Positions 1-31,070 of a DNA stretch of 64,000 bases are shown piece after piece (within the stretch, counting starts at the first letter, position 1; the number at the start of each line of letters is the position of its first letter). The notes under the pieces were generated by a model, which saw only the letters and a program-made list of their open reading frames with translations, ran no database searches and had not been told where the DNA came from. Made by a program: the position numbers and the translations under genes. Source of the stretch: Thermoproteota archaeon (GTDB lineage Archaea; Korarchaeota; JAOZGF01; JAOZFZ01); NCBI GenBank assembly GCA_027492035.1, contig JAOZFT010000020.1:75071-139070 (forward strand), read 5' to 3'.

Positions 1-1
1 G

Positions 2-1315: not shown

Positions 1316-1689
1316 AACCTTCTTTCTTTTTTTATTCCTGGTTTCTGTGTTGAAAAGTTTTAACTCACTTACTAAACTGTTCAGCGTCATCCTTAACATT
1401 CTAAAACAGAGTAAATACTTCGTGATTTATCGAAGAAATCAAAAAACTGTTTTGGTGAGGAAGTGAAGCTTTAAAACTATGATTTTGCGCCTTTTTTGGC
1501 AGTTAAGCCTTTGCTTGAAATTCTGGTTCTTCGCCCTCACTTGTTTTCTTATAAAGATACAAACTTCATCTCCACTTTTCATGTCAACAGAAAGGTGCGC
1601 AAGCTTGTCTTTATACTGTTACTAAATAAGGCCCCTGTATTTGTCAATTATACTTGTGTAGGTTTTGCCTATTCTGTTCTTTAATTGAA

Positions 1690-3228: not shown

Positions 3229-3264
3229 TTAATGTTCTAGTGCTACGCCTTTAATCTCCCTCTT

Positions 3265-3280
3265 AAACCGCTAGCGGTTT
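3265..3280. promoter_or_regulatory. Perfect 16-bp palindrome AAACCGCTAGCGGTTT, candidate operator
   Basis: Self-complementary; lies 37-52 bp upstream of the start at 3228, abutting a TATA-like TTTAAAA on the minus strand. Confidence 0.4.
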
Positions 3281-3448
3281 TAAAGTTTTATGGATGAATC
3301 ATTCATTTAAGAAGAATCTTCTCAGAAAATAAACTTTCTCTCTTGAGGAAAATTTCCAAGCTTTGACGCGGGAAAAGGACTACAAAATTAGTAAAGCCTA
3401 AAAATTAGCTAGTTCTGGATTAACGACCTCAACTTGAAACCTTGTTTT

Positions 3449-4708: not shown

Positions 4709-4735
4709 AAATGGGCACCTCTTAATTAGAAAAAA

Positions 4736-5470
4736 TTAGGTGAGGAACCTAATTAAGAGACCGGAAACATTGGTTACTTTCATTTCCCTGTTCAAGAAGA
4801 TGTCGACAGCCCTCCTAATTGTTAAGATACATTGGGGACAAGCAGTAACAATAAGTTTCAGGTCTTTAGGGATTTCATCCTCAATTATAAGTTTCCTTGC
4901 GGCTATTTTAACTGAAAGAGTAGGGAAAAAAGAAGCTAGAAGTCCTCCTCCACCGCAACAAATAGATTTTTCCTTTGTATATTTAGGTTTGTAAAGCTTT
5001 ACATTTGGAATTAAAGAAATTATTTTTCTAGGTTCCTCGTAAACCTCCATGTGTCTACCAAGTTCGCAAGGGTCGTGGTACATTACTTTCTCTTCCTCTA
5101 AGTGTTTAAATTTAGGTTTAATTTTCCCCTTCTTAATCAGCCCCCAAAGAAACTGTGTAACATGAACTACACCAGGTTTAATTTTCAAACCTAACTTTGA
5201 CATGTAGAATTCTTTAAAGGCTCTTTGACAGGCGGGGCAAGGAGTAACAACTAAATTAAACCTATTCAGTGTTTCAATAATTTCTTTAGCGTTTTTCTTT
5301 GCTTTATTTCTGAAGCCACCTATTATTAAAGGGAATCCACAGCATAATTCCTCTTCCAAAGTGGTAACTTCAATATTTAGTTTGTTGAAGAGGGTAAAAA
5401 TGTTATTAAGGTCATTAGGCAAATTTTTTCTATAATTGCAGCCCTGCCATAAAAGAACCTTTTTAACCAA
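4736..5470 (-). CDS. CCG-domain Fe-S protein (LutA/HdrB-like)
   Basis: Two CCG motifs (LCCGFP, ICCGGGG), CPAC, YHDPCELGR; directly upstream of lutB. Confidence 0.8.
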   Translation of the reverse strand: MVKKVLLWQGCNYRKNLPNDLNNIFTLFNKLNIEVTTLEEELCCGFPLIIGGFRNKAKKNAKEIIETLNRFNLVVTPCPACQRAFKEFYMSKLGLKIKPGVVHVTQFLWGLIKKGKIKPKFKHLEEEKVMYHDPCELGRHMEVYEEPRKIISLIPNVKLYKPKYTKEKSICCGGGGLLASFFPTLSVKIAARKLIIEDEIPKDLKLIVTACPQCILTIRRAVDIFLNREMKVTNVSGLLIRFLT

Positions 5471-5745
5471 GTTTTTTCAACCTTAAAGAAAATTATCTAG
5501 ACAACTTTGCTAAATTTTTCTTTCTGTTTAAAAATGTTAACAGTTCTAAAAAAGGAATCCTAAACTTAACACTGGACTCCTTTTAACTTCCTTTAGTTTC
5601 CTATATCTCCTCTACATTACTGTAAAATTGTTGAAAAGAAAGACACAGGTTGAAAAGGAGAAAAAAATAAAAAAATTGTTAGTTGCTGCAGTTTCCTTTG
5701 AAACCTTCGAAACTTCCCAGTACTTGAGAAGAGGGGGGTTCAAAG

Positions 5746-7116
5746 GTGACTGGCACTTTGTCACTGAAGGAAAAAATTCAACGGAAAAAAGCAGTGGTAG
5801 CTGTTTATGGATTAGGCTATGTTGGTTTGCCTCTACTTCTTCAAACAGCAAGTAAAGGGTTTAAAACTGTTGGAGTGGACATAAACAATAAGAAAGTGTT
5901 AAAACTTAAGAAAGGCGAAACTGAAGTTTTAACAAGCCAAGAAAAAAATGTTTTTAAGAAACTAATAGAGGAAGGATTGGTTGAGCTTACGAGTGACGGC
6001 AACTATGCTTCAGACAAAGCTGAAGTGCATATTATTTGCGTCCCTACACCTGTGGACGAAGTAGGAATCCCTGACTTAAAATTTGTTGTTGAAGCAGCTG
6101 AAACCATAAGCAAGGGTTTAAGGGAGGGTGAAATTGTTGTTTCTGAAAGTACAAGCTACCCTGGAACTGTAGACTATGTTATTCGCCCTGTACTTGAAAA
6201 AACAGGTTTAAAAGCAGGTGAAGATTTCTATTTAGCTTTTTCACCGGAAAGGATTTCTCCAGGCGACCCTTACAAGATATCTGAAATCCCCAAAGTTGTC
6301 GGTGGAGTGAACAAGGAAAGCACAGACCTATCCGCCCTCTTCTACCAGCAAATACTGGATGCCCCAGTGATTCCTGTTTCAGACGCTAAAACAGCTGAAA
6401 TGACTAAAATGCTGGAAAACATTTACAGAGTGGTTAACATTGCGTTAATCAATGAGCTTGCAGTGTTTGCAGAGAAACTAGGAATCGACATATGGGAGGT
6501 TATAAGGGCAGCTTCAACAAAACCTTTCGGTTTCCAGTCTTTTCATCCAGGCCCAGGAGTTGGAGGTCACTGCGTACCAGTTGATCCTTTATACTTCTCC
6601 TTCCTTGTAAGGAAGATGGGTAAAATTTCCCATTTCATAGAGTTAGCTACAGAAATAAACAACAAAATGCCTGAGCATGTGGTTGAACTGGTTGAGGCAG
6701 CTTTAAACAGCGTCAAAAAAAGCGTTAAAGGGTCTACCTTATCAATTTACGGTTTAACTTACAAAAAAGATGTCCCAGACCTAAGGAACACTCCTTCAAA
6801 AAAAATAATTAAGTTTTTGTTGGAATTAGGCGCAAAAATAAAGGTTTACGACCCTTACGTAAAAAAAGTAACATTGGGCAATGAAACATTTAAATCAGAA
6901 AAGAATGTTTTTGAATGTGCAAAAGGAAGCGACTGCCTAATTTTCTTAACCGACCACAAAATGTTTAAGTCAATTAACATCGAAGAATTAATTGAAAAAA
7001 TGAAGGAGAAAATAATTGTAGATGGAAGAAACATTTTCGACAGAGAAACATGTGAAAGAAAGGGAATACATTATTTCGCAATCGGGAAACCCATTAAAAA
7101 AAGGGGTAGGGTTTGA
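5746..7116 (+). CDS. Nucleotide-sugar dehydrogenase (UDP-GlcNAc/UDP-ManNAc dehydrogenase family)
   Basis: GLGYVGLP, CVPTP, ESTSYPGT, FSPER, GPGVGGHCVPVDP, GLTYK..DLRNTP. Confidence 0.9.
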   Translation: MTGTLSLKEKIQRKKAVVAVYGLGYVGLPLLLQTASKGFKTVGVDINNKKVLKLKKGETEVLTSQEKNVFKKLIEEGLVELTSDGNYASDKAEVHIICVPTPVDEVGIPDLKFVVEAAETISKGLREGEIVVSESTSYPGTVDYVIRPVLEKTGLKAGEDFYLAFSPERISPGDPYKISEIPKVVGGVNKESTDLSALFYQQILDAPVIPVSDAKTAEMTKMLENIYRVVNIALINELAVFAEKLGIDIWEVIRAASTKPFGFQSFHPGPGVGGHCVPVDPLYFSFLVRKMGKISHFIELATEINNKMPEHVVELVEAALNSVKKSVKGSTLSIYGLTYKKDVPDLRNTPSKKIIKFLLELGAKIKVYDPYVKKVTLGNETFKSEKNVFECAKGSDCLIFLTDHKMFKSINIEELIEKMKEKIIVDGRNIFDRETCERKGIHYFAIGKPIKKRGRV

Positions 7117-7122
7117 TTCTGG

Positions 7123-7536
7123 TTAAACGTGCCATGTTTTAAAAACTCCTTCACCTTTCAGACAAACCCATCCTGTACCGTAGGCTAAAACTTTCGAAAC
7201 AGTGTGCGTAGTTTTTATGTGTACAATCAAGTTTTCACCTGTAACCTGTGCCATCCCTTCACCTTCATAAACCCAGAAGTTCCCTCTCTGAAAAACATTC
7301 CCTGAACCCTTTGTCACAATTTGAGGTTGATGCCCACCATAGTTTTCCACTTCAAGAATTCCTCCTCCCTGAATAAAAACAGTTCCTGAACCCTGTATCA
7401 CTGCTGTACCTATTCCTTTAGCTGCTAAAACTCCTTTCCCGCCAGTAAATAAAGCATTGACAGAACTCGTGGATAGCATCAAGGAAACAAGTAGGGCGAT
7501 AGCTGTTACACTTAAAAAAATTTTTCCTTTATTCAT
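7123..7536 (-). CDS. Secreted glycine-rich hypothetical protein
   Basis: Signal peptide (MNKGKIFLSV...VNA); recurring GxG beta-strand pattern. Confidence 0.6.
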   Translation of the reverse strand: MNKGKIFLSVTAIALLVSLMLSTSSVNALFTGGKGVLAAKGIGTAVIQGSGTVFIQGGGILEVENYGGHQPQIVTKGSGNVFQRGNFWVYEGEGMAQVTGENLIVHIKTTHTVSKVLAYGTGWVCLKGEGVFKTWHV

Positions 7537-7706
7537 TCCTTTACATCCCTCACTAAAAGTTTTATTTTTTATGAAGGAAGCTGGTAAACCTTAAATAAAC
7601 TTTATGAAAGAAGAATATAGATGATTCATTCATTTCTTTACTTTTTCCCTTCCTCAACCATAATTTTATTCTCTTCTTTTAGTTTCTTTGCTGAGGGGGT
7701 TTAAAG

Positions 7707-8303
7707 TTGTTTGAAATATTCGGTTCAGGGAAACCTAAGAGACTATTTGTTGGTGGTTTACATGGAAAAGAGGGTTTAGTGACTCAAAAAGTTTTTTCAG
7801 AGTTGGTTAAGTCAAACTTCACCGTTAAGGAAGGGTGCTTAATTATACGTAACTTTTCATTAAAAACAAGGTATGTAAGCACTTTAGAAAGAGAGTTTTA
7901 CAATACTGAAACAGGGAAGAAGCTTCTTAAATTAATAAGAAGCATTAAACCAGAAATATATGTTGAATTCCATTCTTACCCATCGAAAAGTTACCCAAGT
8001 TTAACAAGTGAGGAAAGGAGGAAAACTAAGGGGGTTCCGCCCTTAATAGATTTAAGCAAAGGCTTATTGTTCGGTTCAGTTTCTCCGCTTATACGCAAAA
8101 CGGAATTTAAGAAAAGAGACTTTTGTGCATTACTGGAAATACCTAAAAAGTTCACTGGTTACAATGAAGTGATAAACCTTTGCAAAATATTCATTAAAGC
8201 TAGAAATAGAGAAGAAATAGTGGAGGAAATGGAGAAAATTTATCCGGAGCAAATGAAACAAGTTCAGAGAAATTACCTTGAATTCTACTCATTAAAAATT
8301 TAA
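7707..8303 (+). CDS. DUF2119-family archaeal protein (M14 zinc-peptidase-like)
   Basis: LFVGGLHGKEG, YVEFHSY, GVPPLIDL, GSVSP; SD-like GAGGGGG upstream. Confidence 0.75.
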   Translation: MFEIFGSGKPKRLFVGGLHGKEGLVTQKVFSELVKSNFTVKEGCLIIRNFSLKTRYVSTLEREFYNTETGKKLLKLIRSIKPEIYVEFHSYPSKSYPSLTSEERRKTKGVPPLIDLSKGLLFGSVSPLIRKTEFKKRDFCALLEIPKKFTGYNEVINLCKIFIKARNREEIVEEMEKIYPEQMKQVQRNYLEFYSLKI

Positions 8304-8631
8304 ATTTTTTATTAAAGCAAGAAAAAGGAATTTCAGGATTTCTGATACAAGGAATCTGTCAAGATGAAACAGTTAAATTTTTTAATTTTAAGAAATAATT
8401 TATATATCGAAAGTGTAATATCAACTTTATTTGGGAATTGATTAAATAAGACAAAAATTAAAAAAGTATTTTTTTTCCTTGGTTGAAACATTTCTTCTTT
8501 AAGACTCTTTTTTTAGCTAAAAAAGCATTCTTCATTTAAAGACTCTTTTATTGACAGAATCCCTCCCAAATCTTTCGGAAACCTGATTTATGAAAACTAT
8601 TTAATTAAGTTCAAGTTTTTCCACATTTTTA

Positions 8632-10575
8632 GTGGGGGATGTTAGGTGGGTGAGTAGGTTGAAAGCTTTGATACTGGCTGCAGGTAAAGGGACAAGGCTT
8701 AGACCATACAGTGAAACCACACCTAAATCCCTGATGGAGCTTGTTCCTGGTTTAACCATTATTGAATTCATTATAGGTCAGTTAAGGAAAGTAGGTGTCA
8801 CAGATATAGTGGTAGTTACCAGAAGTGAACTTGTTGAAAAGTTCAGAAATAAGTTGGGGGACGAAGTAAGTTATGTTTCAGTGGATGGGGGAAAGGATTT
8901 CGGGAACTTGTACACTGTTGAAGAGGCTCTTAGAAAAGTTGAAGACGACCATGTTTTGCTTGTCATGTCGGATCACATATTTGAAAGGGAGCTTTTGAAC
9001 AAATTAGTTAATTGTGGAGACAGTAAACCAGTTATTCTTTGTTTAGACAGGAACCCTAAATGGATGGTTATTAATGAAGGACTTAGAGTAAAAATTAACG
9101 GTTCAGGAGTTGAAAAAGTTGGGAAAGATTTGCCGCCTTACCATGGAGTAGATACCGGTTTATTTCTATTAAGTAATGAAGCCTTCAATTTAGTTTTTGA
9201 AACAGTGAAAAAGCTTGGGTGCAGTTCTAAAATAGCGGATTTAGTTAACGCAGCTGCAGAAAACAGTAAAGTGGGTTATGTTGATGTAACAGGCCATTTA
9301 TGGATGGACATAGACACACCTAAAGACCTTTTAAAGGCACGGAAACTTTATTGGAAAATAAAAGGGAAGGATTTGGTTAAACCCAGCGATGGCCCTGTTT
9401 CTAAACGTTTAAACAGGCCTATTTCCACCAAAATTTCTCTTTTCCTGTACCAGAGGAACAGAGTTACTTCAAATCAAGTTTCCTTTTTAGCTTTTCTTCT
9501 GGGTTTAGCTTCAGCTTCTCTTTTTCTTTTGAACAACCTAGTGCTCGGCGGAATACTAACTTACATATCTTCAGTTTTTGATGGGGTGGATGGTGAACTT
9601 GCAAGGTTAAGGAGCGAAGAATCTTTTTTTGGAGGAGTCCTTGACAGTCTGCTTGACAGATTCGTTGATTTATCCTTGATATTATCGATAGGTATAAATT
9701 ACTTTAGAAACCCTTACCTAAGTCCTTCTTGGGTTGTTTTCCTGGTTTCCTTAGCATCGTTTGGTGTCATCCTGGTAAGTTACGTTTCAAAACTTTTTGG
9801 TTCGAAAGCTGCAAAATTAAGAAGTGGATTCCCTTGGGCTACAAGAGATGTTAGACTTTTTACTTTCACTATTGGGGGGCTAACCATGTTTCCCTTAATT
9901 CCTTTAGTTTTCTGTGCGTTTGCTCCTTTAATTTTCTCCGGTAAAGCCTTACTGACCCTCAGCAGAAAATCCAGCCCCGTTAAAGTAAAAAAGGGGAAAG
10001 TTGAAACTTTGAGACCTCCCCAGCCTCAAATCAAAGTAGTTGAAAACAAGGCTCCTAAGGAGTCACGGCGTCATTTAACAGATTTGTTTTCAAACATCGT
10101 TAAACTCACAGTTTCCTTAGCAGTGATCCGGATACTGCTCTACTCCTTTGGGGGAGTACCTATGATTAACATTTCTTTACTGGAAATAAAGGCTAGTCAC
10201 GTGTTAAACTTGATAAACCTTGTGGTGATTGTTTATTTTGGGTATGGGATACTTACCTCCCTGAAATTCTTTCTAGACATTGCTTCAGATATAGTAGTGA
10301 GTAAGTTAGAGGTGACCAAAACAGCTTACTCAAGGGCCACATTAGACATTCTTTACTTAATAGGTTTAGCGCTGATCTGGTTCGCTGTAAGTCCGTTACT
10401 GGAGAACGTTCCAGAAATAGGGGAATGGCTTAGAATGCCTTTAGGACTACTTATTTTGGCTGTCTTCACCTTAATACTTTATGATTTATCAAGAATATTT
10501 TACAGAAGCCTTAAAGGAGCTTTAAACAAGGTTATAGATGCAGTAACAGAAGCAATAGAAAAATGCACTAAATGA
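8632..10575 (+). CDS. Bifunctional inositol-1-phosphate cytidylyltransferase / di-myo-inositol-phosphate-phosphate synthase (IPCT/DIPPS) with an extra C-terminal membrane domain
   Basis: LAAGKGTRL, MSDH, DTGLF, WMDIDT; DGPVSKRLNRPIS; CDP-alcohol phosphotransferase motif DGVDGELAR..GGVLDSLLDR; TRDVR. The true start may be the GTG a few codons downstream. Confidence 0.85.
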   Translation: MGDVRWVSRLKALILAAGKGTRLRPYSETTPKSLMELVPGLTIIEFIIGQLRKVGVTDIVVVTRSELVEKFRNKLGDEVSYVSVDGGKDFGNLYTVEEALRKVEDDHVLLVMSDHIFERELLNKLVNCGDSKPVILCLDRNPKWMVINEGLRVKINGSGVEKVGKDLPPYHGVDTGLFLLSNEAFNLVFETVKKLGCSSKIADLVNAAAENSKVGYVDVTGHLWMDIDTPKDLLKARKLYWKIKGKDLVKPSDGPVSKRLNRPISTKISLFLYQRNRVTSNQVSFLAFLLGLASASLFLLNNLVLGGILTYISSVFDGVDGELARLRSEESFFGGVLDSLLDRFVDLSLILSIGINYFRNPYLSPSWVVFLVSLASFGVILVSYVSKLFGSKAAKLRSGFPWATRDVRLFTFTIGGLTMFPLIPLVFCAFAPLIFSGKALLTLSRKSSPVKVKKGKVETLRPPQPQIKVVENKAPKESRRHLTDLFSNIVKLTVSLAVIRILLYSFGGVPMINISLLEIKASHVLNLINLVVIVYFGYGILTSLKFFLDIASDIVVSKLEVTKTAYSRATLDILYLIGLALIWFAVSPLLENVPEIGEWLRMPLGLLILAVFTLILYDLSRIFYRSLKGALNKVIDAVTEAIEKCTK

Positions 10576-10719
10576 GTAAAGGATAACTCTTTACCAGTTT
10601 AATTATTCCATATTTTCATCCTGTCTCAAGAAGAAAATTCAATATTTTTAAATCAAAAACCAACAAAAAGATTAAATTTAAACTTATTTTCAAAAAAATG
10701 TTAAAAAAGGTGGTAAGTA

Positions 10720-11664
10720 TTGATTTCTAAGCTAAGGTTTAAAGGAAAAGATTTTCTCACTTTGATGGATTTTAGCAAAGAGGAAATTGATTTTGTGCTC
10801 AAAGTTTCAGAGGAACTGAAAAGTAAATATTTGAGAGGAGAAAAACATAACTATCTTGAGGGAAAAACCATTGCAATGATTTTTGAAAAACCTTCTACAA
10901 GGACAAGGTTTAGTTTCCAAGCTGCAATTGCCCATTTAGGTGCTCAAAGCTTTTATGCTATGCGTTCACAGATGCAACTTGCTAGAGGAGAACCTATAAA
11001 GGACACCGCGAGAGTTTTAGACAGGTACTGTGATGGTTTGGTGATAAGAACCTTTGGTCAAGAAGTAGTAGAGGAATATGCTGCATACATGAGCCACCCA
11101 GTAGTTAATGCTTTAACTGATTTAACGCACCCTTGTCAGGGACTGGCTGATCTTTTAACTATCAAAGAGAAAAAGGGTGATTTCAGCAAGTTAAAATTAG
11201 CTTATACCGGGGACATTTGGAATGTTGCACAAACTTTAATGGTTGCTGCTGCGATTTATGGGATGAAGGCATACTTTGCAAGACCTAAAGGCTATAACCC
11301 GGATAAAAGGATTTGGAAGTTTGTGCAGGAGAAAATGGAGGAAACTGAAGCTGAAGTAGTTTTAACCAGTGACTTAAGCGAAGCTGTCCAAGGAGCTGAC
11401 GTGGTTTATGCCAACACTTGGCACAGTATGGGAGGCCCCGAGAAAGAAAAAGAGAAAAGAATTAAGGACTTTAAACCTTACCAAATAAACAATGAAGTCT
11501 TAAAGGAAGCAAAGAAAGATGCAATATTTATGCATTGTTTACCGGGTTACAGAGGAGAGGAAATGACTGATGAAGTCATTGAAGGCCCCCACAGTGTAGT
11601 TTTCGACCAAGCAGAAAATAGAATGCATACAGAAAAGGCAGTCTTATCACTTTTTATCCCCTAA
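10720..11664 (+). CDS. argF: Ornithine carbamoyltransferase
   Basis: FEKPSTRTR, HPCQ, SMG, FMHCLP, DQAENR. Confidence 0.9.
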   Translation: MISKLRFKGKDFLTLMDFSKEEIDFVLKVSEELKSKYLRGEKHNYLEGKTIAMIFEKPSTRTRFSFQAAIAHLGAQSFYAMRSQMQLARGEPIKDTARVLDRYCDGLVIRTFGQEVVEEYAAYMSHPVVNALTDLTHPCQGLADLLTIKEKKGDFSKLKLAYTGDIWNVAQTLMVAAAIYGMKAYFARPKGYNPDKRIWKFVQEKMEETEAEVVLTSDLSEAVQGADVVYANTWHSMGGPEKEKEKRIKDFKPYQINNEVLKEAKKDAIFMHCLPGYRGEEMTDEVIEGPHSVVFDQAENRMHTEKAVLSLFIP

Positions 11665-18862: not shown

Positions 18863-19633
18863 GTGTTTAAGGTACCTATTAAAGAAAACGAGAAATTAAA
18901 AACTGTTGTTGACAGAATTAACAGCAACTCGAAAATTCAAACTCTCTGGAAAAGCGCAAACATTACAGCTATTGATAGACTTAACTTTACAGACCATGGG
19001 CCTACACATGCAAAGATTGTTTCAAACATTGCTTTAAGAATTTTTAGGATATTAAGCAAATACGGAATTGTTTCAAATATTGAAAAAGATTACGAATTAG
19101 CGAAGGAAGATGCTGAAATCGTCATTGTATTAGCTTCTGCTCTTCATGATATTGGAATGGCTGTACACAGAGTTAAACATTACTTTTTCAGTGTAGTTTT
19201 AGCTACTGACCTATTAAATGAAGTTCTTGAAGGAATTTACAGTGAAGAAGTGAAAACAATAATTTCGACAGAGGTTTTGCACGCAATTGTTTCTCATCAC
19301 CACGACATTCATCCTCTGACTTTGGAAGCGGGGATAGTGAGGGTTGCAGATGCTTTAGACATGGCTAAAGGAAGGGCAAGAATCCCTTTTGAAATAGGAA
19401 AAATAAGTATACATTCAGTTTCAGCATTATCTATTGAAGAAATAAAAATAGAAGAAGGTAAAGAGAAACCTGTAGAAATAAAAATTAAAATGAGCAATTC
19501 AAGCGGGATTTTTCAAGTGGATGAATTGTTAAAAAATAAAATCAGGAATTCAGGGCTTGAAAAATACTTACAAGTAAAGGCTGAAATAACAGCTGAAAAA
19601 GAAAAGAAAATAATTGATAAATTCACTCTTTAA
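18863..19633 (+). CDS. HD-domain phosphohydrolase (archaeal type)
   Basis: DHGPTH, LHDIG, SHH, VADALDM.KGRAR, IHSVSA. Confidence 0.85.
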   Translation: MFKVPIKENEKLKTVVDRINSNSKIQTLWKSANITAIDRLNFTDHGPTHAKIVSNIALRIFRILSKYGIVSNIEKDYELAKEDAEIVIVLASALHDIGMAVHRVKHYFFSVVLATDLLNEVLEGIYSEEVKTIISTEVLHAIVSHHHDIHPLTLEAGIVRVADALDMAKGRARIPFEIGKISIHSVSALSIEEIKIEEGKEKPVEIKIKMSNSSGIFQVDELLKNKIRNSGLEKYLQVKAEITAEKEKKIIDKFTL

Positions 19634-23436: not shown

Positions 23437-25275
23437 ATGTGTAAAGGATTAAATAAGAGACTTATCAGGATTCTCTATGTTGATGATGAAAAAGATTTTC
23501 TTGTCATTGCTAAGCGTTTCTTGGAGAAGAAGTGGGGAGGCAGGTTCCAAGTTACTTCAGCCTCTTCTGTTGAAGAAGCTTACGAAAAAATCAAGGAGAA
23601 AAGATTTGATGTAATAGTTGCCGATTATGTTATGCCTGGGAAAAGTGGTTTAGATTTTCTGAAAGAATTTAGGGAGAAAGACAAGTTAACCCCTTTCATT
23701 CTTTTCACTGGGAGAGGAGGGGAGGAAACTGTTATAAAAGCTTGGAGATTTGGTGCTGATGGGTATGTTAAAAAGGGAACTGATCTTGAAAACATGTTTT
23801 CTGAACTGGTTGACAACATTGAAAGAGCTCTTGAGAGAAATATTTTGCGTAAATATGTTGATAATGCAGATGTTATTTTAAGTATGATTGGTTCAGACTT
23901 TAAAGTATGGTTCATAAATAAGAGGGGCTGTGAAATTTTAGGCATTGAACCAGAGGAAATAGTGGGTAAAGACCCAACTCTATTTATCCCTGAACAATTT
24001 AGGGATGAAGTAGTGAATGTTTTTGAAAGGTTGTTGGCAGGGGAGGAAGATGAATCTCTGAAGTACAGAGAAAACCCTCTCTTTACAAAGGATGGTGAAG
24101 AGAAATGGTTTACTTGGCGTAACATCGTTTTAAGAGACTCTGAAGGCAGACCTATAGGGATACTAAGTTCAGGCAGGGAAATAACAGAATACAAAAAAGC
24201 ACAGCGTGAACTTAAGGAATTAATGGAGCAGTACAGACGCGTTTTTCAAGGTCTCAGGGATGAAATTTATATTGTGGACCAAAACGGCCAAATACTGGAA
24301 ACAAACGATAAAGCATGTTTGGAAACAGGTTTCACGGAAAAAGAATTGTTGGACATGAAGATTTGGGAAATAAATGAGGGAATGACTGAAAAAGATTGGT
24401 TAGCTTTGAAGAGGAAGATTGATGAAAAAGATAAGGATGGGTTTGTTTTTGAAACTAAACATAAAAGGAAGGATGGGTCAATTTATTGGGTGGAGGTAAG
24501 TAGTCAACCGATAATTTATAGAGGGAAGAAAGCTTATTTAGGAGTTAATAGGAACATTTCTGAAAGGAAGGAAGCAGAGGAAAGGTTGGAAGAATTTACT
24601 TACATGGTTTCACATGAATTAAACGCTCCTTTAAGAAGTATAGTGGCTTATGCAACTTTCCTTTTAGAGGATTATAGTGATAAACTGGATGAGCAGGGTA
24701 AGAAGTATCTTGAAAGGCTGAAAGAGAACTCTCTCCGTTTACAAGAAATGATTAAGGATTTGTTAACTTTATCTAGGGTTGGTAGGGGAGCTGTAGAGTT
24801 TGAAAAAGTGGATTTAAACCAGTTAGTTGATGAAGTGAGGGAGTCACTTGGAGAAAGTAGAGGTGAAGTTATTTACAGCAATTTGCCGACGATAGAGGCT
24901 TCAAGGGTTCAAATGAAACAGTTATTTCAGAACTTGATAGATAACGGTTTAAAATTTAATGAATCAAAAAAACCTGTCGTGAAAATAGAGTGCAAAGTAG
25001 AAGGGGAAATGTACCACTTCAAAGTAATAGATAACGGCATAGGAATAAGGAAAGAGAATCAGGAAAAGATTTTTAAACCATTTACTAGGTTGCATCCTTT
25101 AAAGTATAAAGGAACGGGTATAGGTCTCTCAATTTGTAAAAAGATAGTTGAAACACTTGGGGGAAAAATATGGGTTGAAAGTGAACCTAACAAGGGGTCT
25201 GTTTTCCATTTCACTCTACCTAAGAAGAAACATAGTGAAGGAACCCCTCCAAAACTTTTCATCAAAGAGTCTTGA
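23437..25275 (+). CDS. Hybrid sensor histidine kinase (REC-PAS-PAS-HisKA-HATPase)
   Basis: ILYVDDE, ADYVMPGKSG; two PAS/PAC segments; H-box SHELNAPL; NLIDNGLKF, DNGIGI, GTGIGLSIC. Confidence 0.92.
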   Translation: MCKGLNKRLIRILYVDDEKDFLVIAKRFLEKKWGGRFQVTSASSVEEAYEKIKEKRFDVIVADYVMPGKSGLDFLKEFREKDKLTPFILFTGRGGEETVIKAWRFGADGYVKKGTDLENMFSELVDNIERALERNILRKYVDNADVILSMIGSDFKVWFINKRGCEILGIEPEEIVGKDPTLFIPEQFRDEVVNVFERLLAGEEDESLKYRENPLFTKDGEEKWFTWRNIVLRDSEGRPIGILSSGREITEYKKAQRELKELMEQYRRVFQGLRDEIYIVDQNGQILETNDKACLETGFTEKELLDMKIWEINEGMTEKDWLALKRKIDEKDKDGFVFETKHKRKDGSIYWVEVSSQPIIYRGKKAYLGVNRNISERKEAEERLEEFTYMVSHELNAPLRSIVAYATFLLEDYSDKLDEQGKKYLERLKENSLRLQEMIKDLLTLSRVGRGAVEFEKVDLNQLVDEVRESLGESRGEVIYSNLPTIEASRVQMKQLFQNLIDNGLKFNESKKPVVKIECKVEGEMYHFKVIDNGIGIRKENQEKIFKPFTRLHPLKYKGTGIGLSICKKIVETLGGKIWVESEPNKGSVFHFTLPKKKHSEGTPPKLFIKES

Positions 25276-25298: not shown

Positions 25299-27326
25299 CT
25301 AAACTTTTACGCTTGTGACCTTTAATAATTCCCTTCTTTGCTCAGCCATCTTTTTCCAAGCTTCGCTTGCAGGCTGAGAAGCTTTTTCAGGGAAAACATC
25401 CACTTTTGTTTCAAGTAAGATCGGGAAGGGGGCTGTTATTCCTAAACCGAAACCTAATGCTTCATGAGTAGCTAAACCTGAAAGGTAACGCTTCATGTAG
25501 TTTCCACCATACTCAGTATACCTTATTACAGCATCTTGATCATTTCCTGATTTTAACCTGAAACACAGCACAGTGTTACATTGCGATATAACTGAGTTAT
25601 GGACGAGAAAGTATCCTTCACCTGCCAAGTACCTGTTTGAGGTTGTTTGCAGGTCGTAAACTATTTTCACTCTTCTTTCATTTATTTTTTCAACCTCTGA
25701 AAAAGATACTTCACTATTTTTCAGCCTCAAAATTTTCATTCCCTTCTTCACATTTGAAGCAAGTGTTTCCTTTACTTGGTTTCTGGACAGTATGTAAAGT
25801 TTATGTTTCGGGGTGCATTCTATTCTGAAGCCATCTTTTGTTTCAATGTCTAAAACCAAGTTTTTCTCCTTCTTTTTCATTAAAGCCTGAACAACAGCCT
25901 CTTTTACAGCAAGTTCTTTGTTTATGTAGGGCAATGTTAATTGACGGCTTGGGAAAAGTATTTCTTCGTTACCAACTTTAACCCTTTCACTATACTGTTT
26001 AACTTCCTCAAACAATTCCTTAATTGGAACCAGTTTGTCTTGTAAAATTATTTCTGTATGTTCTGGTACACATTTTGAGACATACGCGGGTCTTTGGGTG
26101 ACAACTACAAAACCTATGTTGTAGCCTCCTGCTTGGCTGATTGCTTCAATAAAAACTTTATCTACTTTTGTTGCTGAGGGGGAGCCAAGTATGGGGGCTG
26201 TTTTTTCAGGTATAAAGTATTGGGCTTCTTCAACAACCAAAATAACAGCGAAATCTCCCTCTTTCCTTCTTTTGATGCCGTACCTAACTATTTTCTTTAT
26301 TATTTCACGTGTTGTAATGTATTGGTCGTCTAAATTTGAGTCTAGAGAGTAATCAATCACTACCACAGGTTCCTTGTAAATCATTTCAATAATGTCTAAT
26401 TCCTTCTCTTTCTTCTTTTTCAGGAACCCTCCCTTAACTTTTAAAGTCCACTCTAGGTAATCCAAGTCTTTTTCGCTGTTTCTTTTGCTCATTGAGTAAC
26501 TTAATTCACTAGCAACTGTTAAAAGGTTTTTAGGTGTTAACTCCATTTTCCTGTTTAAAACTTCAATCACTGAGTCCCTAACTAACTTACCTACAGAAGT
26601 GTTTTTGTTTAAGCCAAGCCTGTCAACTACCACGTACGGCTCTAAAACTTCGTTTTTTGGAAGAAAGCACCGGTAAGAAAAAACTTTAGCACCGAACCGG
26701 CTTAACACTCCATACTCTCCCCTTCTGTCTAACACAACAAACCTTGGGGGAGGGTCAAAAGTTTCCATTGAATTTTTTATCATGTTTACGACAAAACTGG
26801 ATTTTCCTGACCTGGTCATTCCAGCTATGAACAAGTGGCCTTTAGCCACAGCTCCCAGGTCCAAGTAAATAGGTATGTCGAAGGAAACGGTTTTCCCAAT
26901 AGGTAAGTAAACTCCGTCTTTGTTAAGGTTCCCTTTGCCAAGTAATTTATTTAATAACTCCTTTGAAGGCTCGTAAACTAAAGCCCAGGTGGAAGGCACT
27001 GTTTCAAGTGACCTAAACTTTTTGTTTTCGTTGTCGTAGTAACCTAAAGGTTCAGCTAAGGCTACAAAGTACTCTATGTGTTTTCCATGTATAAAATTTA
27101 TTCCTCTGCTTCCAGCTAAGGGTCCAGCTGACCCTATTTTCATTTCTGGGTTGTAGGGGTAAGAATCAAAAACCCTCAGCAAAACATAGCAGGGGTGAGT
27201 TAAGGAGTGTTTAAGGGGATGTTCAATTAAGTAGTAACCTCCAATTCTTACCTTCTTTCCTTTCAGAACCACAAAGTAAATTTCATCTATTGTGGAGCCT
27301 GAAAGGATTCTTCCGATCTGTTTCAT
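25299..27326 (-). CDS. HerA/DUF87-family ATPase (HAS barrel plus P-loop) containing an intein
   Basis: HLFIAGMTRSGKS (Walker A), LDRRGEY, VVEEAQ (Walker B), TQRP...SQCNT split by the intein; 516 aa after splicing. Confidence 0.88.
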   Translation of the reverse strand: MKQIGRILSGSTIDEIYFVVLKGKKVRIGGYYLIEHPLKHSLTHPCYVLLRVFDSYPYNPEMKIGSAGPLAGSRGINFIHGKHIEYFVALAEPLGYYDNENKKFRSLETVPSTWALVYEPSKELLNKLLGKGNLNKDGVYLPIGKTVSFDIPIYLDLGAVAKGHLFIAGMTRSGKSSFVVNMIKNSMETFDPPPRFVVLDRRGEYGVLSRFGAKVFSYRCFLPKNEVLEPYVVVDRLGLNKNTSVGKLVRDSVIEVLNRKMELTPKNLLTVASELSYSMSKRNSEKDLDYLEWTLKVKGGFLKKKKEKELDIIEMIYKEPVVVIDYSLDSNLDDQYITTREIIKKIVRYGIKRRKEGDFAVILVVEEAQYFIPEKTAPILGSPSATKVDKVFIEAISQAGGYNIGFVVVTQRPAYVSKCVPEHTEIILQDKLVPIKELFEEVKQYSERVKVGNEEILFPSRQLTLPYINKELAVKEAVVQALMKKKEKNLVLDIETKDGFRIECTPKHKLYILSRNQVKETLASNVKKGMKILRLKNSEVSFSEVEKINERRVKIVYDLQTTSNRYLAGEGYFLVHNSVISQCNTVLCFRLKSGNDQDAVIRYTEYGGNYMKRYLSGLATHEALGFGLGITAPFPILLETKVDVFPEKASQPASEAWKKMAEQRRELLKVTSVKV
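25596..26072 (-). mobile_element. Mini-intein (159 aa, Hint domain, no homing endonuclease)
   Basis: Starts CVPEHT, block B IECTPKH (TxxH), block F VYDLQT, ends LVHN followed by Ser. Removal restores TQRPAYVSK-SVISQCNT. Confidence 0.93.
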
Positions 27327-28488
27327 CTACATTTTCACCCCTCACTTTTTCACCGAAGTGCAAATCAAGCAAATCCAAGTCCTTAAGTGAAAAATTCCCT
27401 TCCTCTATTTCGTTAATCAATTCTGAATACAGGGATAAGTATCCCGTGGATACTGCTTCGTCTGTGAGTTTAGATAATGCATCTGCTTCATATATTGGAT
27501 AAGGTAGGCCAGTTAAAGGATCTGATACACCTATTAAAGACGAAACTATTTTATTGAAGCTTTTTAAGAGGTAACTGGGAAACTCAACTCTGTAAACTTT
27601 GTTCTCAACTGTTTTTATGTAGAAAGCGTAAATATTTGCGGCCCCTCTTTCCCCAACCGATTTACCTTTGTAAACATTGCTCATTAACCCTCTTACTTTG
27701 AAAGGGGGAGTGTACTCCCCTTTCTTTAAAACAGGGTTCAACAGGCTCACATCTGGTACAGCAACTCTGTGGAAACCTTTTGAAGTAAACGGAATCTCAG
27801 AAAGCAATTTCTTTGAGTAATGTGTACTTCTACATCTTTTGATGAAACCTATTAAGCCTATGTTTCTTTCTTCGCACTCTTTAATTAAGGAAACAGCTGA
27901 AGAAACTGTTTCCTTAAATAATTCAAGGTAATCAACTGAAGAATAAATTTTGTTTGGGTAATAAACATTGTTTATCAGTAAAGATCCGTCGAAGAAGAGA
28001 ATGTCAGGCTTACATTCCTCAATTAACTTTTTTGCTAATTTAAACTGAAAATAGAAACCCAATAAACCAGCCCTTAACTTAGGAAATTTTTCAGTAACCC
28101 ATATGTCATTGTTGAGGAATGTAATTACCAAGGGCTCTCTAATCAGCTTGAAATCTTTAAAAACAACACCTACAGCTTTTATTGAGGGAAGAAAACCTGA
28201 AACTAAATTTAAACCACTTACACCAGTATCAACACCTGCAAAAACCCCTTTAGAATTCTTTCTCTTAACTTTACCAACATTAACTCTCTCCTTCAAAACC
28301 TCAATTAAATACTTCCTTTGAGAGGCTAACTCCTTCAAACGCAACAAAATTTTCTGGTAATTGTTTACAGGTTCCTCAAGGCTGCTAAACAGTCCTGAAA
28401 CCTCAATTAAAGGTCTAACTCTGCGCTTAACAGAAGTCTCAAAATAGTTCTCGATCACTTCTTTACTTAACGCTGCTTGCGGAATCAT
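27283..28488 (-). CDS. NurA-family nuclease (RNase H fold)
   Basis: AGVDTG, FFDGSL, GFIKR, YRVEFP, GLPYPIYEAD; overlaps the start of the HerA gene by 44 nt. Confidence 0.82.
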   Translation of the reverse strand: MIPQAALSKEVIENYFETSVKRRVRPLIEVSGLFSSLEEPVNNYQKILLRLKELASQRKYLIEVLKERVNVGKVKRKNSKGVFAGVDTGVSGLNLVSGFLPSIKAVGVVFKDFKLIREPLVITFLNNDIWVTEKFPKLRAGLLGFYFQFKLAKKLIEECKPDILFFDGSLLINNVYYPNKIYSSVDYLELFKETVSSAVSLIKECEERNIGLIGFIKRCRSTHYSKKLLSEIPFTSKGFHRVAVPDVSLLNPVLKKGEYTPPFKVRGLMSNVYKGKSVGERGAANIYAFYIKTVENKVYRVEFPSYLLKSFNKIVSSLIGVSDPLTGLPYPIYEADALSKLTDEAVSTGYLSLYSELINEIEEGNFSLKDLDLLDLHFGEKVRGENVDETDRKNPFRLHNR

Positions 28489-28519
28489 GAAGAGTACACC
28501 AGAAAAGAAGCATATTTTT

Positions 28520-28536
28520 TCATATTTTAAATATGA
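28520..28536. promoter_or_regulatory. Inverted repeat TCATATTT-T-AAATATGA over the putative nurA TATA box
   Basis: Perfect 8-bp arms 32-48 bp upstream of the nurA start; AT-rich, so chance cannot be excluded. Confidence 0.35.
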
Positions 28537-28730
28537 CTTATTAATTGTAGAGAGGGAGTTGTTTAAATTGTTAAAAAAGAAGTATTTAAGCTTTTCTCAT
28601 TTTTACATGTTTTTTCCAAGAAAAATTTTTTACCAAGAAAAAAAAGATCTAGAAGAACATTTTTTTGCTTGAATGAAAAAGAAAAAACTTAATCAAGAAA
28701 AATTTTTAAGTATAAAAGAAATAAATTTAT

Positions 28731-28754
28731 ATATCCAAAAAATTTTCTGGATAT
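28731..28754. promoter_or_regulatory. 24-bp near-perfect palindrome ATATCCAAAAAATTTTCTGGATAT, candidate operator
   Basis: 11 of 12 positions complementary; lies between a TATA-like TTTTTAAGTA (about 28703) and the in-frame TTG at 28754. Confidence 0.5.
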
Positions 28755-29542
28755 TGGCGAAGAAATTGACTAAGCAAGTGTACATGTTTCTTCAGGGGTT
28801 AGAGGAGGAGAGAATTTTAGAAGGTTTTAGGGCTTACCCTTCCAGGAAAGTAATAATTGTGAGAAACAGCAACGTTTCAGACTATAACAGGAAAGTAGAG
28901 ACTGTAATCGACAAGTTAGTGGCGAGGATAAAGGAGAAACTTAGATATGTTGTTTCAGATTTTGAGGAAGTTTATATAAATTTTTTTAATTTCATTGAAG
29001 CCTTTAAAGGGTTGGAAAGGGTTATATTCAGGGAAAAAGTGGAGGGAAGAGAAGTTTATGTCAACATTACAGGCGGAACTCGTTTAGTTGCTTCTGCTGC
29101 CCTTTTAGCATGTTTTTTACATGGCGCTAAACCTATTTATGTCTCCGCCAGTGAATACACAAGGATGGAAGTGATTGCTCAGAAGGCTGGGAAAGTTTTT
29201 GAAATACCTTCCATCCCTTTAGATATTCCCTCCGTTTCTTCTAAATCTAATGAAAAGAAAGCATTGATTCTGAAAACTTTATACTATGAAATGAAGGGGT
29301 ATTCACCTTCCTTGGAGAAGTTAGCTGAAAAAATGGGTGAGGCAGCAACTAAAAGAAACCTGGCCTGGATAAGTTATCACGTAAGGCAATTAGAGCAGAA
29401 AGGGCTGGTTCAAACAAGGTTTTTGGGCAGAAAGTTAGCTGTTAAATTAACCAGTGCAGGGGCTTTTTCAGCAATTGCAGCATTCCCCGATTCGCAACCG
29501 TACCGAACAAAGGAGAAACCGGAACTAAAAGTTCATATTTAG
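28754..29542 (+). CDS. CARF-like (Csa3/DUF6293-type) domain plus winged-HTH transcriptional regulator
   Basis: VYVNITGGTR..ASAA CARF-like motif, PIYV; C-terminal SLEKLAEKMG...ISYHVRQLEQKGLV...VKLTSAG. Start placed at the TTG at 28754 rather than 28673. Confidence 0.8.
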   Translation: MAKKLTKQVYMFLQGLEEERILEGFRAYPSRKVIIVRNSNVSDYNRKVETVIDKLVARIKEKLRYVVSDFEEVYINFFNFIEAFKGLERVIFREKVEGREVYVNITGGTRLVASAALLACFLHGAKPIYVSASEYTRMEVIAQKAGKVFEIPSIPLDIPSVSSKSNEKKALILKTLYYEMKGYSPSLEKLAEKMGEAATKRNLAWISYHVRQLEQKGLVQTRFLGRKLAVKLTSAGAFSAIAAFPDSQPYRTKEKPELKVHI

Positions 29543-29555
29543 CTTCTAAAATTTT

Positions 29556-30749
29556 TTAAATGAAGTCGTATTTCTTGCTTTCCTCAACTTTTCCAGCGGC
29601 TTTGATAAGGTCCTCAAAGCTTATTTTCCATTCTCCATCTTTATAAATTTCATATAGTAACACATTGTTCCAGATTTTTTTGTGGGTGCCGAAATATATG
29701 TTACCTGCCTTAATTATTCCTGTTTCAGCCAGTTGATAAACGAAGTCATGAAAAACACTTAAGTCGTAAACTGGTAAGAAAATTAGGAAGAAAAGCCTGT
29801 TTTCATTTTTCACCTTGTCACAAACTGTTCTGTACGGTACTTCCTTTAAAGCATTCAGGAACTTAAGGAGGAAGTTTTCGTTTGAGAAAACAAAATTAAC
29901 CATTAGTAGCAAAGTTTGTTTTGCAGAGTAGGGGAAAATGTAAGGGTGGAACTTCCTTATAATCTTTTCCTCTAAATATGTTTTATACCTCTTAGATAAC
30001 CATGGAAGAAAATTTGTCGGTTCCTCCTTAAAGAGCCTTCCCATTTTTTCAGCTATGTCAACAAATTTTTCTCGTGCATTAAGTTCAAGTCTTGAAATAA
30101 AGAAGAGATCCTTTAGGTTGAATTTAAAAAGTTCTTTCTTTCCTTCATCTATTTTGAAAGGTTCAATTTCATCGATTTTCATAATTAGATCTAACCAGTT
30201 AAAAACGTTCCCACCTATTCTTGTACGTTCTTTCAGGTAATAATTTAAGTTTATGTCAGGGTAGATTGGTTGATGGAGAGTGTAAAAATCAAATTCTTCA
30301 ATAAAAGAGTTTTCTTTGAGGTATTTCAGGTACTTAATCAATTCATATTTCTTTTTTTCGGGGATACTGTACCTTACGTATCCTCCTCTACCGTTTAAGC
30401 CGTCGATTACAGCTAAAAGACGCCAGAAAGGGAGTGGTGTAAGCAGTTCTTCAGTAACGAGTTGTTTACTTAAATTTATTTTTGTTAAAACCCCCAAATG
30501 TTCTAGACCTAGTCTAGTTAAATCAAAAACAGCCTTGAAACCTACAAGTTTTTCACTGTCAAACCTCCTAACCCTATAATTAACTGTTTGTTGAGGTTTA
30601 CCAAGTTTCTCAGCCACAACCGTAAGGTTTCTAGGGCCTGATTTCAACATCTCCGAAATAATCTGTAAATCAAAAGAGTCAAGCTTATCATGAGTGCCGA
30701 AATAATGCTCTAATGTGTAAGGAGGAGCAATTACTTCGTAAGGAGGCAA
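29556..30749 (-). CDS. Large Lrp/AsnC-like winged-helix protein with duplicated HTH modules
   Basis: LDSFDLQII..M..GPRNL..VAEKLG.PQQTVNYRV and a second module DLFFISRLELNAR.KF.DIA. Probable TTG start at 30749 after an SD-like GGAGATGGTG. Confidence 0.7.
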   Translation of the reverse strand: MPPYEVIAPPYTLEHYFGTHDKLDSFDLQIISEMLKSGPRNLTVVAEKLGKPQQTVNYRVRRFDSEKLVGFKAVFDLTRLGLEHLGVLTKINLSKQLVTEELLTPLPFWRLLAVIDGLNGRGGYVRYSIPEKKKYELIKYLKYLKENSFIEEFDFYTLHQPIYPDINLNYYLKERTRIGGNVFNWLDLIMKIDEIEPFKIDEGKKELFKFNLKDLFFISRLELNAREKFVDIAEKMGRLFKEEPTNFLPWLSKRYKTYLEEKIIRKFHPYIFPYSAKQTLLLMVNFVFSNENFLLKFLNALKEVPYRTVCDKVKNENRLFFLIFLPVYDLSVFHDFVYQLAETGIIKAGNIYFGTHKKIWNNVLLYEIYKDGEWKISFEDLIKAAGKVEESKKYDFI

Positions 30750-31070
30750 ATTAAGACACCATCTCCCTCTTTCTCCTAAATACTTTAAAAACACCTCTAC
30801 ACCAAATAAGGCATTAACCTTATATAAACTAAACAATTTTTGAATGATAAACTTTTCCAATTAATTCATTATAAGTAAACTTATTTTACATATTAGTATC
30901 TATTTCTTTTTAAATTCAATGATTTTATCACATGTTATGCAATCAATGTTGTAAAGTTTTGAGGTAACTGTTAAGGTAAAAGAAAAATTTCCACGAAGGC
31001 TTTTTCAGAGCATAGACTTTTTTGCTAAACCTTTTACTGGTTAATTTCTCCGTTCATGTAAGAATTATTT

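Follow-up and report, generated by a model that had tools for sequence, protein, structure and literature searches.

A divergent nurA-herA operon and Csa3-type regulator are conserved across an archaeal phylum

We analyzed a stretch of 64,000 nucleotides (the window) from an archaeal metagenome-assembled genome (G000; 1.87 Mb in 42 contigs, 93% complete), where it spans C21:75071-139070, and identified in it a nurA-herA operon that is divergent from the gene for a Csa3-type transcription factor with a CARF domain and a winged helix-turn-helix (wHTH) domain. Both operon genes are paralogues of a second, mre11-linked set in the same genome, herA is interrupted by an intein, the modelled folds of the regulator and NurA are those of Csa3 and NurA, and the synteny of the three genes extends across the phylum. 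With moderate confidence, we regard this trio as a vertically inherited, autoregulated DNA end-processing paralogue. The module is real and conserved, and it presents a known regulatory relationship, that of Csa3a to nurA-herA, in a new form.

The nurA and herA genes overlap by 44 nt and form a translationally coupled operon, which the regulator gene faces head-to-head (Table 1). An earlier reading of this DNA from its letters alone (the sequence-only reading) had proposed that the pair stands alone, outside any CRISPR locus, under a CARF-like regulator, as a candidate defence or repair system. The herA-like, nurA, CARF-like/wHTH and convergent wHTH genes lie where that reading had placed them, with the same overlap and orientation (open reading frame [ORF] map, Pfam). 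It was also right that mre11 and rad50 are missing, as neither Mre11 nor Rad50 was found by Pfam among the window ORFs scanned, from 14.3 to 43.2 kb, and the sole match in the genome to its own Mre11 is on contig C12. Pfam found no cas genes in the window, no CRISPR array was present, and an Rfam scan at gathering thresholds was empty; the type III genes of this genome are on contig C37. The window NurA had no match in plasmid or phage collections.

The phylum set comprised 43 genomes in five families. Window-type NurA was present in 37 of them, in all five families (E ≤ 1e-10), as judged by a profile built from five NurAs whose source genomes are counted in this census. At all 21 loci listed with enough flanking sequence, nurA and herA overlap and a divergent ORF of 238-310 residues lies directly upstream of nurA, so the proposed linkage of regulator and pair holds in every related locus with sufficient flank. 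The upstream ORF was homologous to the window regulator by blastp in eight loci; seven of the 21 matched Pfam HFX_2341_N at E ≤ 0.01 (above the cut-off in G001 only), and 14 matched various winged-helix models. The most divergent group, ten proteins of genus g4, was aligned to the window group by hhalign (96.3%, E 1.5e-9) over 157 columns that span the later half of the CARF-like domain together with the wHTH, and the divergent arrangement persists though regulator identity falls below 20% in places. A six-row regulator alignment used as a query reached only three loci (two Thermoproteota archaeon, one Iainarchaeum), and a protein homologue search returned five regulator and six NurA relatives, which is too insensitive for a census.

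In a NurA tree of 55 rows (quick IQ-TREE run, LG+G4, Shimodaira-Hasegawa-like approximate likelihood ratio test [SH-aLRT]), the 23 regulator-linked rows formed two adjacent clades, one of 17 rows from family f3 (support 99) and one of six rows from families f1, f2, f4, and f5 (support 82). Genera are monophyletic inside these clades, as taxonomy predicts, and the mre11-linked rows fall elsewhere, which bears out the suggestion that the pair is distinct from housekeeping orthologs. A separate NurA was encoded within 3 kb of an Mre11 match in 12 of 14 mre11-type comparison rows, and most genomes retain such a NurA. Outside the phylum, only two of 358 other archaeal genomes had a close window-type NurA (6e-54 and 3e-51); neither locus has an adjoining regulator, and a Cas4-like nuclease is encoded near one and an XPD-like helicase near the other. 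All five genomes of genus g6 have, in addition, an extra NurA-like frame that crosses exactly one in-frame TGA (Table 1), which might reflect a pair of neighbouring genes, recoding, or a break common to all five.

The source genome has three NurA and six DUF87 matches (Pfam). The separate canonical locus that the sequence-only reading suggested looking for is present on C12 as an operon in one direction, with nurA (405 aa), a 216-aa ORF, herA (599 aa), mre11 (408 aa), and rad50 (819 aa). The 216-aa ORF (C12:22131-22781; L010 10131-10781) was matched by neither Pfam nor NCBIfam. In both genomes of family f4 the canonical nurA is followed by an ORF of 213 aa, similar to it in position and size. 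A third pair (C31:63293-66917; L011 7293-10917) encodes a HerA of 618 aa and a NurA of 606 aa. This NurA exceeds the usual length by about 200 aa, matches only the first 107 positions of Pfam NurA, and sits on a very long branch of the tree.

The NurA paralogue has a predicted NurA fold, HerA keeps its Walker motifs, and herA contains a mini-intein

The window NurA matched Pfam NurA with 58.1 bits against a cut-off of 21, at profile positions 80-253 only. Its AlphaFold2 model (predicted local distance difference test [pLDDT] 82.4) had as best Foldseek match the NurA of Sulfolobus solfataricus (2ygk_A, E 1.7e-14, template modelling score 0.72 on the target), and it also matched the T. kodakarensis HerA-NurA complex (9x1l) and P. 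furiosus NurA. Pfam and the model thus agree on a NurA domain of the RNase H-like type. A NurA sequence profile run against PDB sequences at E ≤ 1 had no NurA among its matches, and it was the fold search that found it. The conserved acidic residues are D87 (GVDTG), D167 (FFDGS), D246, and D336 (YEAD). All 25 aligned rows share D87 and D336, and at least 90% have D167; in the model these three lie on elements E82-95, E163-167, and H330-339, the expected strands and helix.

The window HerA matched DUF87/HerA with 41.2 bits (cut-off 23.2) and has, as in the HerA superfamily, a P-loop domain with Walker A (GMTRSGKS, aa 169) and Walker B (VVEEAQ, aa 364), along with DRRGEY at aa 200 and TQRP at aa 410. 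The sequence-only reading had noted DRRGEY, EEAQ, and the YEAD of NurA as departures from housekeeping forms. All three are present, but the other HerAs of this genome read DMHSEY/EEAH and DIPGEY/DEAQ at the equivalent motifs, and the quoted motifs are within the range of the family rather than unusual. A HAS-barrel was not matched in the window HerA at E ≤ 0.01 (Pfam), while four of seven scanned orthologues matched it at E ≤ 0.001; the score nearest the 25.2-bit cut-off was 25.1 bits (L086), with the others lower.

The window HerA falls far below the cut-offs of two NCBIfam models, the repair equivalog for double-strand break repair helicase HerA (NF040819; 32.5 bits, cut-off 970) and anti-phage-associated HerA (NF042943; 55.6 bits, cut-off 800). 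PADLOC HerA models matched it in part (best 7e-26; "Type III coevolved" PDLC01055, 5.3e-11), the regulator matched generic CARF3 models, and no PADLOC family matched the window NurA. At the protein level the suggested comparison with catalogued defence systems therefore found pieces, but no one system was fully matched.

The length of the HerA precursor is explained by a 159-aa mini-intein that interrupts herA and was overlooked in the sequence-only reading. It was detected by Pfam Intein_splicing (38.9 bits, cut-off 35.8) and NCBIfam intein_Nterm (3.3e-10), with boundaries at TQRPAYVSK|CVPEH and FLVHN|SVIS and a block B-like TPKH at aa 505. It has Cys at position 1, a terminal His-Asn, and a Ser nucleophile at +1, and its site is vacant in orthologues. 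No endonuclease domain was detected within it. In an alignment with 24 orthologues, exactly this stretch is missing from the HerAs of G001 and G072, and the intein-free protein of the sister genome G001 (514 aa) is otherwise 66% identical to the window HerA.

A different insertion, of 239-396 aa, lies in the Walker A loop (GMTRSGK|S...HN|S) of 22 of 25 aligned HerAs. Pfam identified it as an intein in all five tested, and two insertion-free HerAs gave no such match. These Walker A inteins (L032, L035, L036, L077-L093, L114, and L115) have Ser at position 1, and two of five Pfam-scanned HerA orthologues have an HTH_3-type match inside theirs. By these alignments the paralogue appears to have been invaded by inteins at two conserved sites, of which the window lineage has the rarer, post-TQRP one, and this suggests that it has been an intein target over a long time.

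The regulator has a predicted Csa3-type fold, and its ligand motif varies among lineages

The regulator matched Pfam HFX_2341_N (64.5 bits, cut-off 30), for which it is the single match in the genome, and Csa3_N (28.0, cut-off 27), with weaker matches to Cas_APE2256 and CARF_Card1; in NCBIfam the Csa3 model TIGR01884 gave 48.4 bits, under its cut-off of 60.2. An AlphaFold2 model built from 25 sequences (pLDDT 89.1, predicted template modelling score 0.71) had as top Foldseek matches S. solfataricus Csa3 (2wte_A, 1.4e-8) and its cA4 (cyclic tetraadenylate) complexes 6wxq and 6w11, in alignments of 237-241 columns with some 15% of residues identical. The protein is accordingly modelled as a Csa3-type fold over its full length, with an N-terminal Rossmann-like CARF domain and a C-terminal winged helix. 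Possible starts are TTG 28754, TTG 28766, GTG 28778, and ATG 28784. Homologues begin 4-9 residues ahead of a VY[IM]F strand, so TTG 28754 or 28766 is the likely start and ATG 28673, where the longest ORF begins, probably is not.

In Csa3, motif 2 is Leu-x2-Gly-h-Arg, where Gly96 and Arg98 touch the phosphates of cA4, according to the accessible text of Charbonneau et al. (PMC8699464). The window regulator has this motif as I-T-G-G-T-R (29066-29083, aa 132-137 of the long ORF), and its profile reaches the cA4 ring nuclease Sso2081 at 4e-6, with ITGGRK aligned with ITGGTR. Motif 1 can be recognised in part only (F-L-Q-G-L-E-E-E-R-I-L-E), with the Gly and acidic residues in place and Thr, Phe, and the spaced Arg out of register. 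An ITGGTR-type motif 2 is also found in G001, G002, and one metagenomic relative. Elsewhere it is replaced (ISSSFP, IGAGDK, LNSVSP, VTPGRS, IDSKSP, VVCSGP), and it is lost in families f3, f4, and f5. From this pattern, ligand binding is plausible in the window lineage and has probably disappeared from most of the phylum, where the regulator gene nonetheless stays linked to nurA-herA. The CARF assignment of the sequence-only reading is thus supported by the Csa3 fold and the retained Gly/Arg contact motif here, but the motif is degenerate in most lineages.

Two distant CARF-wHTH relatives also lead same-strand gene sets. One (L033 of G053, 6155-10913) precedes genes for RmuC, a metallo-beta-lactamase-fold protein, a small ORF, and a PIN protein, and the other (L037 of G060, 1-7145) precedes a PLD-helicase, a helicase C-terminal protein, and an Eco57I-like methylase. 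These operons suggest that the family is generally associated with DNA-processing genes.

The source genome may have the means to make a cyclic nucleotide signal, which brings an antiviral explanation into view. A type III CRISPR-Cas cassette on C37 (L043, 385-18544) encodes Cas10, five RAMP proteins, and Cas6, and the 880-aa Cas10 has both GGDD (YLGGDDGAV) and an HD motif. A 218-aa ORF of the cassette matches CARF_Card1 weakly, and the 20 kb examined on C37 showed no tandem array. The search for signal-producing enzymes that the sequence-only reading recommended found a Cas10, but for SMODS/CD-NTase the genome gave only a sub-threshold match (21.8 bits, cut-off 26.5). On a cyclic oligoadenylate-triggered scheme, this Cas10 would make cA4 on detecting viral RNA, the CARF domain would bind it, and de-repressed NurA-HerA would degrade invader or host DNA. 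The cA4-contact residues of motif 2, the profile match to Sso2081, and the RmuC/metallo-beta-lactamase/PIN and PLD-helicase/methylase operons of the distant relatives all fit such a scheme, and HerA-nuclease pairs are known in defence (PADLOC HerA models; TdpAB, PDB 8wfd).

The distribution of these genes makes this antiviral scheme unlikely. The trio is near-universal (37 of 43 genomes), whereas Cas10 (PF22335) and Cas1 (PF01867) are patchy, each in 21 of 43. Five genomes with the trio have neither by these searches (G003, G004, G006, G014, and G025; 96-99% complete), and G001 has the same intact CARF motif and no Cas10 match at 94% completeness. Conversely, the pocket is decayed in some genomes where Cas10 was found, and motif 2 is lost in families f3, f4, and f5. 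Transcriptional induction would also be slow for an abortive effector, NurA matches no PADLOC family, and the locus has no mobile-element context. Taken together, the near-universal and tree-congruent trio, the patchy Cas10 and Cas1, the housekeeping neighbours, and the lack of plasmid or phage matches fit a vertically inherited cellular function better than a mobile immune island. A defence role for the trio, which the sequence-only reading had raised, is not supported.

A second CRISPR-related explanation comes from S. islandicus, where Csa3a binds, in electrophoretic mobility shift assays, the promoters of nurA-mre11-rad50-herA and of a stand-alone nurA-herA operon (SiRe_0094/0095), as described in the accessible text of Liu et al. 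2017 (PMC5587795). The same text reports binding to promoters of adaptation cas genes and proposes that prespacer fragments are made by NurA-HerA. By analogy, the window regulator could turn on NurA-HerA so that DNA fragments feed spacer acquisition. This is very improbable here, with Cas1 unmatched in the source genome (93% complete) and present in 21 of 43 genomes against a near-universal trio, and with neither a cas gene nor a CRISPR array in the window by Pfam and Rfam.

The shared control region contains candidate operators

The divergent control region has 25% G+C. Some 40 nt upstream on the nurA side there is a TATA-like ATTTAAAATA, and GGTG precedes the ATG. The TATA-like and Shine-Dalgarno assignments were made by reading of the sequence, as a sigma-70 promoter/terminator scan is not meaningful for an archaeon. 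Three exact boxes of AGAAAAWTTTTT are present (Table 1). The 1.87-Mb genome has 43 exact matches, and in no other 200-bp stretch do three of them fall together; over the whole window the box occurs at chance level (20 found, 18.7 expected). Aligning the region with those of G001 and G002 revealed no common operator, and a TATTTAAGCTTT element is common to the window and G001 only. A further candidate, CCAAGAAAAA with one mismatch, was rejected, since the window holds 35 copies where 28.9 are expected by chance.

Orthologous regions carry other dyads, with AAAAT-N2-ATTTT in 14 of 23 and CAAAA-N4-TTTTG in 13 of 23. In a genome-wide search, CAAAAT-N2-4-ATTTTG occurs once per genome, at the regulator start, in four of five relatives. 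The window has no exact CAAAAT-type dyad and has AGAAAAWTTTTT boxes where other lineages have CAAAAT-N4-ATTTTG. In the genome of the fifth relative, G026, a single CAAAAT-N2-ATTTTG was observed at G026:C1:100084-100097, about 150 nt past the herA 3' end of a third nurA-herA pair.

These palindromes bear on whether the regulator controls its neighbours at all. It could instead be a global repressor whose position is conserved for other reasons, as its best Pfam family takes its name from HFX_2341 of Haloferax mediterranei, reported in the accessible text of PMC11434293 to be a global regulator by which many genes, cas genes among them, are repressed, and the lack of conservation of the AGAAAAWTTTTT boxes in the nearest relatives would suit such a role. 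We consider this quite unlikely, in view of a divergent layout kept at 21 of 21 loci in five families despite the low regulator identity, and of the genome-unique palindrome in the shared region in four of the five genomes tested.

Genes surrounding the trio

The nearby genes of the window are housekeeping ones by Pfam, encoding an IF-2B-family protein, an epimerase, a NUBPL-type ATPase, a class I (I/L/M/V) aminoacyl-tRNA synthetase, deoxyhypusine synthase, and CoaBC. The 434-aa wHTH gene is convergent on the regulator across a gap of 13 nt. The sequence-only reading had called it a tandem Lrp-like gene, which was not borne out: there is a single AsnC-type HTH match (aa 60-102), about 330 residues have no Pfam match, and the two halves are unlike (best E 0.031). 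It was rejected as a member of the unit, and blastp did not find it in those related loci that were examined. On the other side, a convergent gene for a hybrid sensor kinase (receiver, two PAS, HisKA, HATPase) ends 23 nt from the end of herA, and it was rejected as well, since blastp of related loci gave no match. Further away, a 256-aa HD-domain protein weakly resembles the Csm1 model in its N-terminal portion (E 4.4e-4 for that part of the model).

Table 1. Coordinates of features in the window and of the interrupted NurA-like frames in genus g6 (window positions unless a genome and contig are given)
Feature	Position	Strand	Details
herA paralogue	25299-27326	-	675-aa precursor, ~516 aa once spliced; Pfam DUF87/HerA
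mini-intein in herA	25596-26072	-	aa 419-577, 159 aa; Pfam Intein_splicing, NCBIfam intein_Nterm
nurA paralogue	27283-28488	-	401 aa; Pfam NurA
shared divergent control region	28489-28765	.	25% G+C
AGAAAAWTTTTT box 1	28619-28630	+	exact
AGAAAAWTTTTT-like copy	28654		one mismatch
AGAAAAWTTTTT box 2	28696-28707	+	exact
palindrome ATATCCAAAAAATTTTCTGGATAT	28731-28754		overlaps TATA-like TTTATATA, abuts likely regulator start codon
AGAAAAWTTTTT box 3	28737-28748	-	exact, inside palindrome ATATCCAAAAAATTTTCTGGATAT
Csa3-like CARF + wHTH regulator, HFX_2341_N family	~28754-29542	+	start uncertain; longest ORF from 28673
convergent wHTH gene	29556-30860	-	434 aa; one HTH_AsnC/HTH_24 match
HD-domain protein	18863-19633	+	256 aa
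hybrid sensor kinase	23437-25275	+	convergent on herA
g6 frame crossed by TGA	G010:C18:24262-24930		
g6 frame crossed by TGA	G012:C17:151175-151843		
g6 frame crossed by TGA	G019:C3:61056-61709		
g6 frame crossed by TGA	G038:C137		
g6 frame crossed by TGA	G018:C119		

Proposed function of the module and comparison with known systems

In the proposed mechanism, a dimer of the regulator would bind the candidate AGAAAAWTTTTT boxes that separate the two promoters. Since one of these boxes overlaps the regulator's own TATA and start region, the regulator probably represses itself and sets the expression of nurA-herA. The CARF pocket of the window lineage may still bind a small ligand, with cA4 the obvious candidate, while elsewhere in the phylum the pocket would mostly have decayed and the protein would act as a plain DNA-binding regulator. 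HerA would gain its activity only through excision of the mini-intein, which would make the motif region following TQRP continuous again. A hexameric HerA ring on a NurA dimer is predicted from the gene overlap and the NurA fold match to 9x1l, and the complex may resect or degrade DNA ends as the canonical one does, in repair, recombination, or replication-fork processing.

Several points weigh against this interpretation. No residue of the window NurA could be assigned as the Glu of the usual DEDx set. The AGAAAAWTTTTT boxes were found post hoc in very A+T-rich DNA and are not conserved in G001 and G002, the two nearest relatives, and for these reasons we treat them as candidate operators; the sole CAAAAT-N2-4-ATTTTG match of G026 lies away from its regulator start. 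Five of the 21 upstream ORFs have no Pfam match at all and many others are sub-threshold. In the tree, made with a quick method, deep nodes are unresolved and several long branches were flagged. Conservation in nearly all genomes points to a cellular role, although an immune function that became fixed long ago is also possible. Finally, a link to type III signalling may exist in this particular genome, given a Cas10 that looks cyclase-competent and the cA4-contact motif of the regulator.

The nearest published case to the window trio is Csa3a of S. islandicus. Both combine a Csa3-type CARF-wHTH factor, of the same regulator fold, with a nurA-herA pair apart from mre11-rad50. As far as the accessible text describes it, the Csa3a gene belongs to a type I-A CRISPR locus and its product controls numerous promoters in trans, whereas the window regulator divergently adjoins its operon, lies far from cas genes, is co-inherited phylum-wide, and has about 15% identity to Csa3. 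The canonical NurA-HerA-Mre11-Rad50 system (PDB 2ygk, 3tai, 9x1l) shares with the window pair the NurA fold, the HerA Walker motifs, the gene overlap, and probably the acidic residues, but the window pair has no mre11 or rad50 partner, belongs to a clade separate from the mre11-linked copy of its own genome, and has its own regulator.

For HFX_2341 (PF19810), the likeness is that of the best Pfam family for the regulator N-terminus and of a Csa3-like protein without CRISPR linkage. It differs as a global repressor, in the accessible description, from a regulator that is locked to nurA-herA here, and the main text of PMC11434293 mentions neither HerA nor NurA. The HerA anti-phage systems and the type III-associated HerA/NurA (TdpAB, 8wfd; Shah et al. 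2018, PMC6546367, in its accessible text) likewise pair a HerA-type ATPase with a nuclease. The window pair differs from them in covering the PADLOC models only in part, and not at all for NurA, in having the type III cassette on another contig, and in being vertically inherited rather than patchy. No published description of the cis-linked trio or of a HerA intein was found in titles and the starts of abstracts among the papers listed; the 2020 CARF classification in Nucleic Acids Research may already list the association.

A bolder version of the mechanism applies to the window lineage and a few others. There, cA4 made by Cas10, or another cyclic nucleotide, would bind the intact CARF pocket of the regulator and so free nurA-herA transcription, and the intein, which directly follows TQRP, would hold HerA inactive until splicing conditions are met, making a doubly gated switch. 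We put this forward tentatively, as it is rather unlikely to be correct. If it were true, type III CRISPR signalling would be hard-wired in cis to DNA-end processing outside a CRISPR locus, and the same circuit would lose its ligand input in sister lineages.

As a vertically inherited, probably autoregulated end-processing paralogue, the trio separates two things that are easily conflated, a CARF regulator beside a nuclease-ATPase pair and an immune system. Its distribution is that of a core function passed down vertically within an archaeal phylum. A regulatory link shown in trans in Sulfolobus, from Csa3a to nurA-herA, appears to be fixed in cis here. With herA, a small mini-intein of the Cys1 kind becomes available from a lineage of thermophiles. 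Finally, the regulator family is a natural experiment in which a second-messenger sensor turns into an ordinary repressor, because intact and decayed pockets occur in one orthologous family, together with mismatches between Cas10 and the pocket and genome-unique candidate operators in four of five relatives.

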